From assembly GCA_035402765.1 (NCBI GenBank), contig DAONDX010000001.1:13090-77089 (forward strand): 64,000 bases of DNA. Reading direction: 5' to 3'. Made by a program: the position numbers and the translations under genes. The DNA comes from Candidatus Omnitrophota bacterium (lineage in GTDB: Bacteria; Omnitrophota; Gorgyraeia; Gygaellales; Profunditerraquicolaceae). This document shows positions 5,254-53,291 of this stretch, piece by piece. Every line of letters begins with the position of its first letter. Within the stretch, counting starts at the first letter, position 1. The notes beneath the pieces are model-generated. The model saw nothing but the letters and a program-made list of their open reading frames with translations. It did no database searches and was not told where the DNA came from.

Positions 5254-5795
5254 AACTTCCCCCGGAAATTAATGCTTCCCTGATTAAACTCCAGCATGAA
5301 CTAAAACTAACTCTGCCTAAAATTAGCTGGGTAAAACCGGCTAACCTGCATCTTACTTTAAAATTCCTGGGCGAAATCTCTACCGAGCAACTCGCCTGCG
5401 CCGCACAAAAGATCCCGGAAATAATTAAAGGTTTTTCTCCATTCGAAATTAAGCTGGAAACCTTAGGCGTCTTTCCCGATTTAAGCCGGGGGCGGATAAT
5501 TTGGATCGGCTCCCAAACCCCTGATCCTGAGCTAAAACGCCTGGTCGGAGAAATCGAAAAAGAACTATCGAAAATCGGACTGCCCAAAGAAAAACACTCT
5601 TTCCAGGCGCACATCAGCCTGGGCCGGATAAAACAACCTTTAAACCCTTTAGATTTAGAATGCTGCCTGAAAAAAGTATGGAATGATTGTGCAACTCTGG
5701 ATTTGAAATTTAGCGCCGCGGGAATTACTTTGTTTAAAAGCCAGCTTAACCGGCAAGGAGCCGACTACAGCATATTGCAAGAATTAAACTTTTGA
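5232..5795 (+). CDS. thpR: RNA 2',3'-cyclic phosphodiesterase (2H phosphoesterase, LigT/ThpR)
   Basis: Two H-x-T/S-x motifs (HLTLKF and HISLGR) fit the 2H phosphoesterase family. Confidence 0.8.
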   Translation: MRAFIAIKLPPEINASLIKLQHELKLTLPKISWVKPANLHLTLKFLGEISTEQLACAAQKIPEIIKGFSPFEIKLETLGVFPDLSRGRIIWIGSQTPDPELKRLVGEIEKELSKIGLPKEKHSFQAHISLGRIKQPLNPLDLECCLKKVWNDCATLDLKFSAAGITLFKSQLNRQGADYSILQELNF

Positions 5796-36877: not shown

Positions 36878-37948
36878 TTAAACGCCGCGCTGCTGGCGTT
36901 TATTCTCTTGTTCTGCTTTCAATAAAGCCTCAAAAAGTTCATCCATCTGCCCCTCTAAAATCCCTTCCAATTGGTGAGAAGTAAAATTGATCCGGTGATC
37001 CGTGACCCGCCGGTCAGGATAGTTATAAGTCCGTATCTTTTCACTGCGGTCACCGCTGCCGATTTGAGTTTTCCGGGCACTGGATAATTTTTTTGCCTCA
37101 TTCTCAACCTTTACCTCTAAAATACGGGCGCGTAAGACTCTCATCGCCTTAGCTTTATTCTTAATTTGTGAACGCTCATCTTGACAAGCCACTACCGTAC
37201 CGGTGGGAATATGCGTAATCCTGACCGCGGAATCCGTTTTCTGCATGTGTTGTCCGCCGGGGCCGCTGGAACGGTAAGTATCAATCCTTAAGTCTTTTGG
37301 TTCAATCACTAAATCAATCTCTTCCGGTTCCATCAATACCGCCACCGTAGCTGTGGAGGTATGGATCCGCCCCTGGGATTCTGTCGTCGGCACCCGTTGC
37401 ACGCGATGTACCCCGCTTTCAAATTTCAAACAACGGTAAGAATCCTTTCCTTTTACGCTAAAAACTATTTCTTTAATCCCGCCGGCCTCATTAATACTGG
37501 AATACATCGGTTCAATAGTCCAGCCTTTGTTATCAGCATATTTAGAATACATCCGGTATAATACGGCCGCAAAAAGCCCGGCCTCATCGCCTCCGGTGCC
37601 CTGACGGATTTCCACGATACAGTCACGCCCGGCATCCTTATCTTCTCCGGCCAGGATTTTATCCAGTTTCCCCATCAGGATAGTTTTTTTCTCGGCTAAA
37701 ATCACCTGTTCGGCGCGGGCCAATTCGATAAACTCCTGCTCATGCTTACCCGCCATCACCGTTTCAAGATCGGCAATTTCTTTAAGCAAATCCTTATACT
37801 CCCGATATAAAGAAACCAGCGGCTTGATATCCGACAGCTCCTTAGCCAGCTTATTATAGGTCTGGCGGTCGCTGATCTGCTCATGGTTCCCCAAAAGCTG
37901 CTCCAGTTCCTGGTAACGGATAACAGATTTTTCTAGTTGTTTATACAT
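36878..37948 (-). CDS. prfA: peptide chain release factor 1
   Basis: GGQ motif SGPGGQHMQKTDSAV and a PxT-type decoding region. 356 aa. Confidence 0.95.
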   Translation of the reverse strand: MYKQLEKSVIRYQELEQLLGNHEQISDRQTYNKLAKELSDIKPLVSLYREYKDLLKEIADLETVMAGKHEQEFIELARAEQVILAEKKTILMGKLDKILAGEDKDAGRDCIVEIRQGTGGDEAGLFAAVLYRMYSKYADNKGWTIEPMYSSINEAGGIKEIVFSVKGKDSYRCLKFESGVHRVQRVPTTESQGRIHTSTATVAVLMEPEEIDLVIEPKDLRIDTYRSSGPGGQHMQKTDSAVRITHIPTGTVVACQDERSQIKNKAKAMRVLRARILEVKVENEAKKLSSARKTQIGSGDRSEKIRTYNYPDRRVTDHRINFTSHQLEGILEGQMDELFEALLKAEQENKRQQRGV

Positions 37949-38109
37949 TTAATGAGCGGACAACTTATGGAGGCCAAGCCGACATAAGTTGTAGCTCCGA
38001 TTTATCGGAGCGTCCGCGAATTAATACTGTGTCTGCGAGAAAATTCTAGAGAATTTTCGAGCGGGAAGACACAGCAACTTGTGAGTCCGCACTTAAATCA
38101 TTGGCGGAT
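37949..38109 (-). ncRNA. candidate structured cis-RNA element, copy 1 (fills the rpmE-prfA spacer)
   Basis: Nested inverted repeats: GCGGAC...GTCCGC, a 10-bp stem ACAACTTATG/CATAAGTTGT, GCTCCG-N6-CGGAGC, and AAAATTCTAGAGAATTTT. It shares the conserved block GCGTCCGCGAATTWAT and the AT palindrome with the second copy at 51350-51501. Confidence 0.45.
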
Positions 38110-38316: not shown

Positions 38317-38390
38317 TTTGACCCCTTTCTCTGTTTGTTGTTTTTAAATACTTTTCGGTTAATACTGCCGCTTCTTATTGCGGCAATAGT

Positions 38391-39650
38391 TTATTTTTGA
38401 TTCATACTGTTTAAAAATTCTTCATTATTCTTTGTTTTACTTAACTTTTCGATCAACAACTCCATGGCTTCCACGTTATTCAACTCATTTAGAACCTTTC
38501 TTAAGATCCAGGTTTTGCTTAACACATCCGGCTTAACTAAGAGCTCCTCGTGGCGGGTATTTGAACGCTTAATATCAATGGCCGGATAAATTCTGCGCTG
38601 GAAAAGATTACGATCCAGTTGAGTCTCCATGTTGCCGGTTCCTTTAAACTCTTCAAAGATAACCTCATCCATCCGGCTTCCCGTATCCACCAGGGCCGTA
38701 GCAATAATCGTCAAGCTTCCGCCTTCATCTACCGCGCGGGCGGCGCCAAAGAATCTCTTGGGTTTCTGCAGGGCATTAGAATCAATACCGCCGGAGAGAA
38801 CTTTTCCGCTGTGCGGAACCACAGAGTTATAAGCCCTGGCCAGACGCGTAATACTATCCAGAAGCACAACCACGTCACGCTTATGCTCAACCAGGCGCTT
38901 GGCTTTTTCTAAAACAATTTCAGCAACCTGCACGTGGCGTTCCGGCGGCTCATCAAAGGTGGAAGAGATAACTTCCCCTTTAACATTACGCTGCATATCC
39001 GTAACTTCTTCCGGACGCTCATCAATTAACAGAACGATCAGGATCACATCCGGATTATTACTGGTGATGGCGTTAGCGATTTTCTGCAACAGGACAGTTT
39101 TCCCGCTATAAGGCTGCGCAACGATCAAACCACGTTGCCCTTTACCGATCGGCGTAAGCAGGCTCATGATCCGCATAGATATTTCATCGGGTTTTGTCTC
39201 CATATTGAACGGCTCACGCGGATAAACCGGGGTAAGATTATCAAAAAGCACTTTTTCTTTTACTTCATCGGGATTTTCAAAATTTACCGCTTCAACCTTA
39301 AGCAAGGCAAAATATTTTTCCCCTTCCTTAGGCGGACGGATCTGGCCGCTGACCGTATCTCCGGTACGCAGTTCAAATTTTCTGATCTGCGAAGGAGAAA
39401 TATAGATATCATCCGGACAAGGAAGATAATTATAGTTGGGGCTGCGTAAAAAACCAAACCCTTCGGAAAGTATTTCCAATACCCCCTCCCCAAACATCAA
39501 TCCTTCTTTTTCAGCCTGAGCCTGAAGAATTTTAAAAATCAGATCCTGTTTTTTTAACCCGCTGGTACCATTGGCATTTAATTCACGAGCCAACTTGTTC
39601 AATTCACTAATCTTCATTTCTTTTAGATTTTTGATGTCTAACTTTTCCAC
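38391..39650 (-). CDS. rho: transcription termination factor Rho
   Basis: 419 aa with an N-terminal RNA-binding domain, the RecA-like ATPase [15 protein letters not shown] and the Q and R loops. Confidence 0.95.
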
Positions 39651-50995: not shown

Positions 50996-51349
50996 TTAAA
51001 CTTTTTCTTCCCGGTTATCTATCTTAGTAGCGTGTTTACCAATCTTTCCTCTTAAATAATAAAGCTTGGCCCGCTTAACCTTACCCTGACGGATAATCTC
51101 GATCCGCTCAATCACAGGTGAATAAAGCGGGAAAACGCGCTCCACTCCCTCGCCGGAAGATACTTTTCTTACGGTAAAATTTGTTTTAGTACCCGAACCG
51201 CTTTTAGCGATGACCACCCCTTCAAAAGGATGCAGACGGAATTTATCCGGTCCTTCGGGAATTTTAGTAAGTACTTTCACGGTATCTCCGACATTAATTG
51301 CCGGCATCTCTTTCTTAGTGAACTCTGCTTCAATTGACTTTATATCCAT
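50996..51349 (-). CDS. rplS: 50S ribosomal protein L19
   Basis: I placed the start at the ATG at 51349 ([10 protein letters not shown]) with SD AAAGGAGG 8 nt upstream. The track start at 51391 would read through that SD and the structured element. Confidence 0.9.
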
Positions 51350-51501
51350 TCTTGTTGCCTCCTTTAAATGAACGGATGACTTACTAAACATCAGCGACGT
51401 AAGTCATCGCTCCGGCTTACCGAAGCGTCCGCGAATTTATTCCGCCGAATATTTCAAAATTCTAAAGAATTTTTAAAATAGTTTCTGAGGCGGAACGTTC
51501 C
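51350..51501 (-). ncRNA. candidate structured cis-RNA element, copy 2 (fills the trmD-rplS spacer)
   Basis: It shares with copy 1 the blocks GCTCCG...CGAAGCGTCCGCGAATTTAT and AAAATTCTAAAGAATTTT. At the position of the copy-1 hairpin it has a different perfect 10-bp stem, GATGACTTAC/GTAAGTCATC, which is a compensatory change. Confidence 0.45.

Positions 51502-53291
<1,790 letters not shown>

Follow-up and report, generated by a model that had tools for sequence, protein, structure and literature searches.

A candidate family of interspersed structured repeats next to ribosome-binding sites in Candidatus Omnitrophota

The trmD-rplS spacer and the two copies in the window

The window analysed here is a stretch of 64,000 nt of Candidatus Omnitrophota DNA, in which the intergenic spacer between trmD and rplS, at 51350-51501 (152 nt), is filled by a structured element located at 51364-51495 on the minus strand. 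These coordinates agree with a preliminary description of the window, which had given the spacer the same limits and considered it filled by the element. Judging from the comparisons presented here, the element is a member of an apparently uncatalogued family of interspersed, structured intergenic repeats, so far seen only in Candidatus Omnitrophota. The upstream gene trmD (51502-52182, minus strand) shows PF01746 at the syntenic position and ends with the TAG stop codon at 51504-51502. Downstream, rplS (50996-51349, minus strand) encodes the 117 aa ribosomal protein L19, which is 79-92% identical to PF01245 homologues labelled Candidatus Omnitrophota, and its true start is the ATG at 51349-51347. 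The Shine-Dalgarno sequence (SD) of rplS, AAAGGAGG at 51358-51365 (minus strand), is separated from that ATG by an 8-nt gap. The called open reading frame (ORF) of rplS reaches 51391. However, the L19 homologues listed (n = 120) span 113-135 aa, nearly all of them 117-119 aa, and in relatives lacking the element the trmD stop lies just 14-15 nt 5' of the same rplS start; because of both observations the extension to 51391 is to be considered a wrong call, as had already been suspected.

The element consists of a variable hairpin A followed by an irregular hairpin, in which a helix named P1 encloses two further hairpins, B and C. Hairpin A of the rplS copy (hereafter copy 2) is located at 51440-51495 (minus strand) and begins 6 nt past the trmD stop. 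It folds on a TTCCGCC/GGCGGAA base and carries the palindrome AAAATTCTTTAGAATTTT at its tip, while the base sequence TTCCGCCTCA...TTCGGCGGA recurs in the orthologous spacers of three relatives (L071, L072, and L076; loci retrieved in this work are numbered with L), upstream of metK (L016 and L019) and in a rho-rpmE spacer (L078). The core (51365-51439, minus strand) is supported by a covariance model match and by covariation in the family. Its outer P1 is UAAAU/AUUUA and its inner P1 is GCGGA/UCCGU, one inner pair being G·U, with a tandem UC/UC mismatch at 51434-51433 opposite 51371-51370. The long helix carries hairpin B (GCUUCGGUAAGCCGGAGC, 51409-51426, minus strand) on its 5' strand, a branch that is hypervariable and not obligatory. 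Hairpin C (51377-51406, minus strand) has the lower stem UGACUUAC/GUAAGUCA, which differs from the consensus ACAACUUAC/GUAAGUUGU by two compensatory double changes; toward its apex it is degenerate, having lost the second UC/CUC loop that the consensus shows. Copy 2 is, by all appearances, a diverged and somewhat decayed family member.

Copy 1 lies in the rpmE-prfA spacer (37949-38109) and extends over 37948-38075 on the minus strand, with hairpin A at 38026-38075 and the P1/B/C core at 37949-38025. The covariance model (R1), built from 31 distinct family cores, matches copy 1 at 37948-38025 with 90.5 bits (E = 3e-27) and copy 2 at 51364-51440 with 69.2 bits (E = 4e-20). Alignment of the two spacers gave a column identity of 75%, with identical blocks that include AAAATTCTNTAGAATTTT and AATTCGCGGACGCT, and the differences falling in stems are compensatory. 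The RNA folding z-score of copy 1 was -6.9 and that of copy 2 was -4.6, and none of 200 shuffles folded equally well. Model scores, alignment and folds all agree with the earlier proposal of a second copy having the architecture of the first. No further copy was found in the 64-kb window by R1, by the pattern scan or by a generic descriptor (helix-TC-helix...TC-helix), which returned background only.

The two copies differ at the translation start of the downstream gene, as the preliminary description had held. In the fold of copy 2 only the first A of the rplS SD is paired, as part of the last P1 pair, the rest being single-stranded. The SD starts 1 nt past that final pair, so the claim that it is left free is confirmed. 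In copy 1 the AUG of prfA (37948-37946) stands immediately 3' of the final P1 pair and is not preceded by an SD. This contrast does not look like two designed regulatory states. It follows from the neighbours of the insertion point, because rplS had an SD there and prfA an SD-less AUG near the rpmE stop. Two small hairpins were additionally observed in this region on the minus strand: TCCGCCAATGATTTAAGTGCGGA just past the rpmE stop (38084-38106), and TTGCCGCAATAAGAAGCGGCA in the rho-rpmE spacer (38365-38395), at which site two relatives (L078 and L080) bear the full element.

Distribution, fold and turnover of the repeat family

Scanning of genomes with the core pattern led to true matches limited to four contigs from three Candidatus Omnitrophota metagenome-assembled genomes (MAGs), where the element precedes rpsP (L002, as a tandem pair), prfA (L011), and metK (L016 and L019). 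About 30 further matches from Actinomycetota, Planctomycetota and others were GC-rich chance hits and were discarded. The metagenome scan, with hairpins B and C left free in the pattern, retrieved 35 loci, 32 of which were true and three (L047, L050, and L063) chance matches, and viral contigs scanned for the C-stem/P1 signature gave no hits. Regarding the window itself, its L19 and RF1 proteins share 79-100% identity with proteins labelled Candidatus Omnitrophota, RF1 being 100% identical to one labelled 'MAG TPA Candidatus Omnitrophota'. R1 located extra copies on both strands of the retrieved loci (up to 4 in 2.5 kb), and densities lie between 2 copies per 64 kb and 4 copies per 2.5 kb. In the literature searched for RNA motifs or repeats of Omnitrophota, no description of the element was found.

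More than 20 unrelated genes are preceded by the element. They comprise rplS (at least 6 genomes), prfA (4 genomes), metK (2 genomes), rpsP, rpmE, and infA, along with ribBA, ribH, glgA, exbB/motA-like, ptsN-like, glycosyltransferase, ROK kinase, and rubrerythrin-like genes, a leuA-type aldolase gene, a DUF5679 zinc-ribbon gene and genes for membrane proteins. The idea of a leader shared by rplS and prfA is not borne out by this distribution, nor by the polymorphism of the element between relatives. The element lies between the upstream stop codon and the ribosome-binding site (RBS) of the next gene, approximately 90% of copies being in sense orientation, and at filled sites the insertion starts 0-6 nt past the stop codon and ends at the SD. 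Position relative to the start codon was recorded for 42 distinct copies. An SD and a start codon follow 21 of them, and in 20 of these 21 the SD starts -1 to +1 nt from the last P1 pair. Another seven have an AUG flush with P1 and no SD, and one more small basic ORF may belong to this group, in which prfA, infA, ribBA, a recJ-like gene and a small basic protein have their AUG 0-1 nt past P1; the register of the AUG relative to P1 shifts by 1-2 nt among copies. The start codon is farther off in four copies, and in 10 it was not found, these being tandem first copies, copies at contig ends or copies antisense to the flanking genes. Concerning the DUF5679 gene of L080, a TTGACA-17-TAGAAT promoter is followed by about 25 nt, the element and the SD, which places the element within the 5' untranslated region (UTR). 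The element is flush with the SD even there, although the UTR of the element-less orthologue (L078) is about 45 nt long.

Promoter-like sites were absent from both window copies in a sigma-70 scan, and terminator-like sites were absent from copy 1, while copy 2 gave one chance-level consensus match at hairpin C (51411-51393). Hairpin A is followed by UNAAUUCG, with no U-run. Sigma-54, ECF and hairpin-promoter ideas, considered by eye, were dropped, as the sole segment of constant spacing carries no such motifs.

About four copies are antisense to both neighbours, often as inverted pairs with a common hairpin A. Inverted pairs, or copies antisense to both flanking genes, were located in L065 (450-617), L055 (5496-5687 and 6975-7287), L040 (799-992), and L046 (273-332 and 1300-1357); a central hairpin A is demonstrably common to both copies in L065 and in L055 at 5496-5687, and L040 may be likewise. 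The mRNAs that carry antisense copies transcribe a tandem G•A version of the conserved mismatch motif. Tandem and partial duplications were found in L002, L044, L060, and L062. In L044 (5440-5760, minus strand), three tandem mini-ORFs (MMPWMKKA*, MPWMRK*, and MPWMKK*) lie 5' of a leuA-like gene, the first two each preceding an element and the third coming after the second element. One element of this locus has kept the outer P1 (AAUUCG...CUCAUU) alone, the hairpin inside it being a different one; a run of GGTCAC-like repeats comes next. Another copy, in L039 (1-260, minus strand), is established directly 3' of a tRNA-Met (CAU) gene and is followed at the contig edge by a 17-nt duplicate of the tRNA 3' end (AAATCCAGTCGCCGCCA), which looks like a scar left by integration or like a repeat at which the assembly broke off.

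The unit is about 110-160 nt long, hairpin A being followed by the long irregular hairpin. Hairpin A is present in every copy with an essentially arbitrary sequence, its base is GC-rich and its 3' end abuts P1; in one subfamily, as in both window copies, the tip reads AAAATTCYNNRGAATTTT. The outer P1 comprises 5 AU-rich base pairs (U-N-A-A-U/A-U-U-N'-A) and is followed by the strictly conserved tandem UC/UC mismatch. The inner P1, with consensus GCGGAC/GUCCGC, runs on into the lower C stem AACUUAYG/CRUAAGUU, so that about 14 bp separate the first mismatch from a second one, UC/(C)UC, beyond which only a short variable apical stem-loop remains. Hairpin B with its UAC linker is an optional hypervariable insert in the 5' strand of this 14-bp helix, and members without it have merely a 1-2-nt bulge at that position. 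Many A hairpins likewise contain the UC/UC motif. Apart from the two UC/UC loops, most of the invariant positions lie in base pairs. An alternative pairing of the 5' flank of hairpin A with the 5' strand of P1 was inconsistent across copies.

Covariation was studied in an alignment of 43 R1 hits (41 distinct), which were fitted to the model and hence lean toward its structure. Pairing holds in 98% of the 960 cells of this alignment, and for 16 of 24 pairs both partners have changed. None of 500 shuffles attained any of the observed measures, and partners slid by 1-3 columns paired in 30-46% of cases. Two further observations are independent of the model-alignment bias. The outermost P1 pair, N-N', which lies outside the search pattern, covaries (AU17/UA12/CG7) in a plain MAFFT alignment. 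Variants without hairpin B swap the whole inner P1 for strands that are still complementary (GCGCAU/AUGCGU, GUGCA/UGCAC, GCCCA/UGGGC, and ACAC/GUGU). Compensatory change is shown to maintain the fold.

Comparison of the rplS loci, which have the common synteny tgt-trmD-[spacer]-rplS-rnhB-yraN-FTCD-folD, revealed a graded series of spacers. The full element is found in the window, L052, and L068; L071 and L072 have a short hairpin A and a B-less core, and L076 has retained the outer P1 with a perfect hairpin in place of hairpin C. The spacers of L075 and L077 (69 and 74 nt) hold no recognisable element but possible remnants, while those of L073 and L074 are 14-15 nt long, with the same AAAGGAG SD and no element. 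The L19 protein of L074 is 89% identical to that of the window despite this element-less spacer. At the prfA locus, the rpmE-prfA spacer is empty (0-19 nt) in L078, L079, and L080; there prfA nearly abuts the rpmE stop and in two of the three lacks a canonical GGAGG SD. The rho-rpmE spacer bears the element in L078 and L080, is empty in L079 (TAA-T-AAAAGGAG) and is different in the window. Whether the motif is present in the orthologous spacers of relatives had been put forward earlier as a decisive point, and the answer is divided, since it is present in many of them and cleanly absent from some. The rplS and prfA regions in L071-L080 are accompanied by acetyl-CoA synthase/CODH (carbon monoxide dehydrogenase), MTHFR, FolD, and FTCD genes of the Wood-Ljungdahl pathway.

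Three comparisons of filled and empty sites (trmD-rplS, rho-rpmE, and DUF5679 5' UTR) showed no direct repeat of at least 2 nt at the borders, and a search for target-site duplication gave just a weak, inconsistent AGG-like motif 5' of some copies. Such an AGG(T)A-like motif recurs 0-10 nt 5' of hairpin A on the sense strand (e.g., in L041, L045, L043, L016, and L002) and could be a decayed duplicate of the SD-side target or a part of the element. Two pairs of copies are much alike: L051 (at prfA) and L068 (at rplS), from the same metagenome, have identical cores, and two copies on one L080 contig are closely similar with a compensatory change in the inner P1. Both pairs may be read as recent copying or gene conversion. 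Taken together, the alignments indicate gain, loss and decay of the element between close relatives without visible target duplication, which we regard as shown at the level of sequence. Element-like pieces in scrambled order, ATAAATTCACAC ... GGCGGGAATATTTAAAGGAGG, were also found in the DUF5679 5' UTR of L079 (20290-20380), where they suggest partial deletion or rearrangement of a former copy.

Comparison with known classes and competing explanations

No match to the Rfam L19_leader (RF00556) was obtained, either in the whole window at gathering thresholds or at 51250-51600 with E ≤ 10. Any other Rfam 15 family matched both copies only at chance level with E ≤ 10, the best being gyrA RNA with 18.5 bits against a gathering score of 45. 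The comparison with the L19 leader and other known families that had been called for thus leaves the element without a match. The sole Rfam family reaching its gathering score in the window is the FMN riboswitch (RF00050, 4525-4711, minus strand, 85.7 bits). An autoregulatory leader specific for L19, the idea nearest to the Firmicutes L19 leaders with which the preliminary description had compared the element, would fit the place immediately 5' of rplS, where L19_leader also stands and which is conserved in several relatives, but the lack of a match at any threshold, the >20 unrelated genes that follow the same element and two close relatives without it 5' of rplS, where it is evidently dispensable, leave this idea next to no credence. 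Because of the distribution of the element, a leader specific for L19 or RF1 is ruled out.

Among mobile classes, MITEs (transposable elements in miniature with inverted repeats), derived from DDE transposases, share with our family the small size, the multiple copies and the insertion polymorphism, but no target-site duplication was seen in the three filled/empty comparisons. The P1 arms form inverted repeats (TNAATTCG... / ...CTCATTNA) interrupted by a mismatch of 2 nt that is strictly conserved, and hairpin A lies outside them. A classical MITE was rejected, as the element shows no target duplication and apparently no true terminal inverted repeats. Integron attC sites likewise keep structure more than sequence, have a helix-mismatch-helix-variable tip layout and a bottom strand that looks better folded, and are sited between an ORF and the RBS of the next; however, neither strand of our consensus contains RYYYAAC...GTTRRRY core sites, and the flanks are syntenic housekeeping genes (trmD-rplS, rpmE-prfA, and rho-rpmE) instead of cassettes. 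The window copies do not behave as intrinsic terminator or sigma-70 promoter cassettes. tRNA-like, RNase P, K-turn, hammerhead, hairpin-ribozyme, ANTAR, and CsrA motifs were rejected by inspection, and ARAGORN found no tRNA in the window. Compensatory changes, as in a generic structured RNA under purifying selection, were found, and selection may act on either strand.

Three groups of interspersed repeats come closer. BOX elements (boxA-boxB(n)-boxC) and RUP/SPRITE are pneumococcal interspersed repeats (PMC3049150), and like our family they are small (<200 nt) and intergenic (PMC3049150). BOX is moreover modular with an optional or variable self-folding inner module (boxB there, hairpin B here), its terminal arms pair in a tight RNA fold and it is co-transcribed with its neighbours, as the Omnitrophota element presumably is (PMC3049150). 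It also lacks a clear mobilising enzyme or target duplication, and the orientation-dependent effect on the downstream gene listed for it may have an analogue here (PMC3049150). In contrast, the pneumococcal repeats are enriched between convergent genes, at 3' ends, with a strand bias that mirrors the coding bias (PMC3049150), whereas the Omnitrophota element is established at 5' ends, 0-1 nt from the SD and about 90% in sense. Furthermore, the two have no sequence similarity and belong to different phyla, and tandem UC/UC mismatches are not a BOX feature. Correia elements (CREE) of Neisseria are 100-160-nt intergenic hairpin-forming repeats, polymorphic between related genomes, and their mRNA-borne hairpin can be an RNase III substrate, altering expression of the adjacent gene (PMC2649163). 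They differ by 26-bp terminal inverted repeats, TA target duplication, IHF sites and promoter creation (PMC2649163), none of which was seen in the Omnitrophota element. REP/BIME (REPIN) sequences, which RAYT (Y1/HUH) transposases mobilise, and palindromic elements derived from IS200/IS605 are extragenic, imperfect palindromes with conserved mismatches, strand-specific structure, mosaic, tandem or inverted arrangements and no target duplication. Unlike them, the Omnitrophota element is larger and branched, has a sequence-variable hairpin A and shows no GTAG-type tetranucleotide in the family alignment; REP sequences are not characterised by a place right beside the SD, and a RAYT was not found, although genomes were not tested for RAYT.

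On balance we lean toward the element being an interspersed structured repeat akin to REP, BOX, and Correia elements, one that undergoes co-transcription without hiding the SD. This likeness is drawn because the element occupies many unrelated loci, is gained, lost and decayed between relatives, has near-identical paralogues and occurs in mosaic, tandem and inverted arrangements. Its spread would resemble that of REP/BIME, BOX, and Correia elements: a small repeat, non-autonomous and either mobile or recombining, would have inserted into very short, often translationally coupled junctions and be co-transcribed with its neighbours. Insertion would be tolerated because both hairpins close on themselves, so that the stop codon and the SD stay adjacent and the SD remains single-stranded; selection would afterwards keep the pairing. 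As RNA, the element would most likely act as a generic intercistronic or 5'-UTR barrier or processing site, contributing to mRNA stability and RBS insulation, and its role would then be one of generic structure and not of a sensor specific to L19 or RF1. It stands apart from the REP, BOX, and Correia precedents by a fold kept through compensation in old, diverged copies and by a very precise position, with a 3' helix ending 0-1 nt from the SD and about 90% of copies in sense. Two ORFs close to copies were observed by the way. In L053 (314-2954), a 436-aa ORF that looks transposase-like from its N-terminal sequence lies about 100 nt 3' of an element, with three pilin-like genes in tandem after it, and L043 (1568-1843) has a small GIY-YIG-like ORF about 1.3 kb from an element.

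Several points weigh against the mobile repeat. No transposase, RAYT or other mobilising enzyme was identified, Y1/RAYT genes being unseen in about 400 kb of loci that were not searched systematically for them, and target-site duplication and, apparently, classical terminal inverted repeats are lacking. Strong divergence is frequent among the copies of one genome (those of the window are only 75% identical), and it is more in keeping with functional RNAs that are old and conserved one by one than with a parasite active in recent times. Random insertion does not explain the strict placement at the SD and the about 90% sense orientation, which could reflect a preference for certain targets or a genuine function tied to the RBS. 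That the element is transcribed, processed or able to affect expression is a prediction made from sequence. The strand itself is a further difficulty. On the mRNA strand, the features conserved outside Watson-Crick pairing consist of UC/UC mismatches together with C(UNC)G or C(UNNC)G loops. Read from the other strand they become tandem G•A together with C(GNA)G or C(GNNA)G loops, and sheared G•A pairs and GNA mini-hairpins are well known to stabilise a fold. These features favour the strand opposite to the mRNA. Moreover, in 33 of 37 cores it is the antisense strand that gives the more stable RNA fold, and G·U pairs number 19 in sense against 23 in the antisense equivalent (10 vs. 7 in the core, 9 vs. 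16 in hairpin A). The absence of a sense-strand G·U excess would be unusual for an RNA selected on the mRNA strand. Orientation relative to genes points to a sense RNA, while the chemistry of the motif points to the opposite strand, and a role as single-stranded DNA or recognition by a specific protein might account for this. Under DNA energy parameters both strands fold about equally well.

The first of the competing explanations is a dedicated cis-regulatory RNA, whose helices and UC/UC loops would bind a phylum-specific RNA-binding protein or sense a global signal, and thereby control translation initiation at the RBS of a broad housekeeping regulon (translation factors, ribosomal proteins, metK, and others). 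Strong covariation around an invariant core sequence, the fixed distance of 0-1 nt to the SD (or an AUG flush with P1) and the bias toward sense orientation would all be expected of it. The element is also kept at orthologous sites across species (prfA in four, rplS in six, metK in two), many of its targets are translation genes and paralogous copies differ in their peripheral helices, as riboswitch or T-box copies do. Yet the downstream genes are functionally heterogeneous, which together with the mostly paired invariant positions does not fit a riboswitch or another ligand-sensing leader; the conserved nucleotides lie in helices and not in junctions or loops. The element is absent or decayed at the same loci in relatives with 80-90% identical proteins, some copies are antisense to their flanking genes, tandem or truncated, and the sense strand has no excess of G·U. 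A regulatory RNA of this kind is consequently viewed as an unlikely, though the strongest, competitor.

Somewhat less likely still is action at the DNA level, with a folded single strand, probably the one opposite to the mRNA, being the substrate of an HUH/Y1-type transposase, another hairpin-recognising recombinase or a replication factor, and the RNA structure being a by-product. The antisense mismatches as tandem sheared-type G•A, the many apical C(GNA)G or C(GNNA)G loops and the more stable antisense fold (33/37 cores) speak for it, as do wobble statistics that are symmetric between strands, the three filled/empty pairs without target duplication, the insertion polymorphism and a strong orientation bias, known also from IS200/IS605 and REP elements. 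On the other hand, hairpin A is variable, whereas the ends of IS200/IS605 need two recognised hairpins, and neither a conserved flanking tetranucleotide nor a REP-like GTAG is present. The non-systematic look at about 400 kb of loci showed no associated Y1/RAYT gene. Genes co-directional with replication expose the sense and not the antisense strand as lagging-strand template, and the equal folding of both strands under DNA parameters is likewise unfavourable.

An RNA processing module or self-cleaving ribozyme, with its cut where hairpin A meets P1 or else at the 3' foot of P1, is improbable. It would separate cistrons and yield short-leader or leaderless mRNAs, which would explain an SD-less AUG flush with the helix, as in 7-8 copies with the AUG 0-1 nt past P1. 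Hairpin A, often 0-6 nt past the upstream stop, would resemble a protective 3' hairpin, and RNase III cleavage of Correia elements is a precedent (PMC2649163). Nevertheless, no Rfam ribozyme matched even at E ≤ 10 and the AUG register varies by 1-2 nt against P1. In addition, prfA already stands 0-20 nt from rpmE in the element-less relatives, two of three without a canonical GGAGG SD, and the flush AUG of prfA is therefore explained by a tiny ancestral rpmE-prfA spacer.

Meaning for Omnitrophota gene expression

Omnitrophota are uncultivated, ultra-small and possibly host-dependent bacteria, and to our knowledge their gene regulation is essentially unknown. The family described here seems to be a new one of a known kind of element, unusual in hugging the RBS and with a function that is predicted only. 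A folded repeat family set in the gap between stop codon and RBS and kept by compensatory evolution offers a handle on the processing or insulation of operon mRNAs in this phylum. It is also a handle on how a small mobile element enters translationally coupled junctions without breaking them. For genome annotation the element is a pitfall, since it yields false N-terminal ORF extensions, as for rplS. The family also supplies a covariance model, as well as a marker by which contigs of Omnitrophota can be told. Should proteins turn out to read the UC/UC (G•A) motifs as a recognition code, they would constitute a new RNA- or DNA-protein recognition module. A bolder and rather doubtful extension is that the element represents a phylum-wide new class of cis-acting RNA or folded single-stranded DNA. 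An Omnitrophota factor would then recognise the two tandem pyrimidine-pyrimidine mismatches (G•A on the opposite strand) 14 bp apart and so set the 5' ends of mRNAs, or the access of ribosomes, for dozens of housekeeping genes, among them those whose SD-less starts adjoin the helix (prfA, infA, and ribBA). If true, this would amount to a global control layer at the RBS, built from a domesticated mobile repeat.

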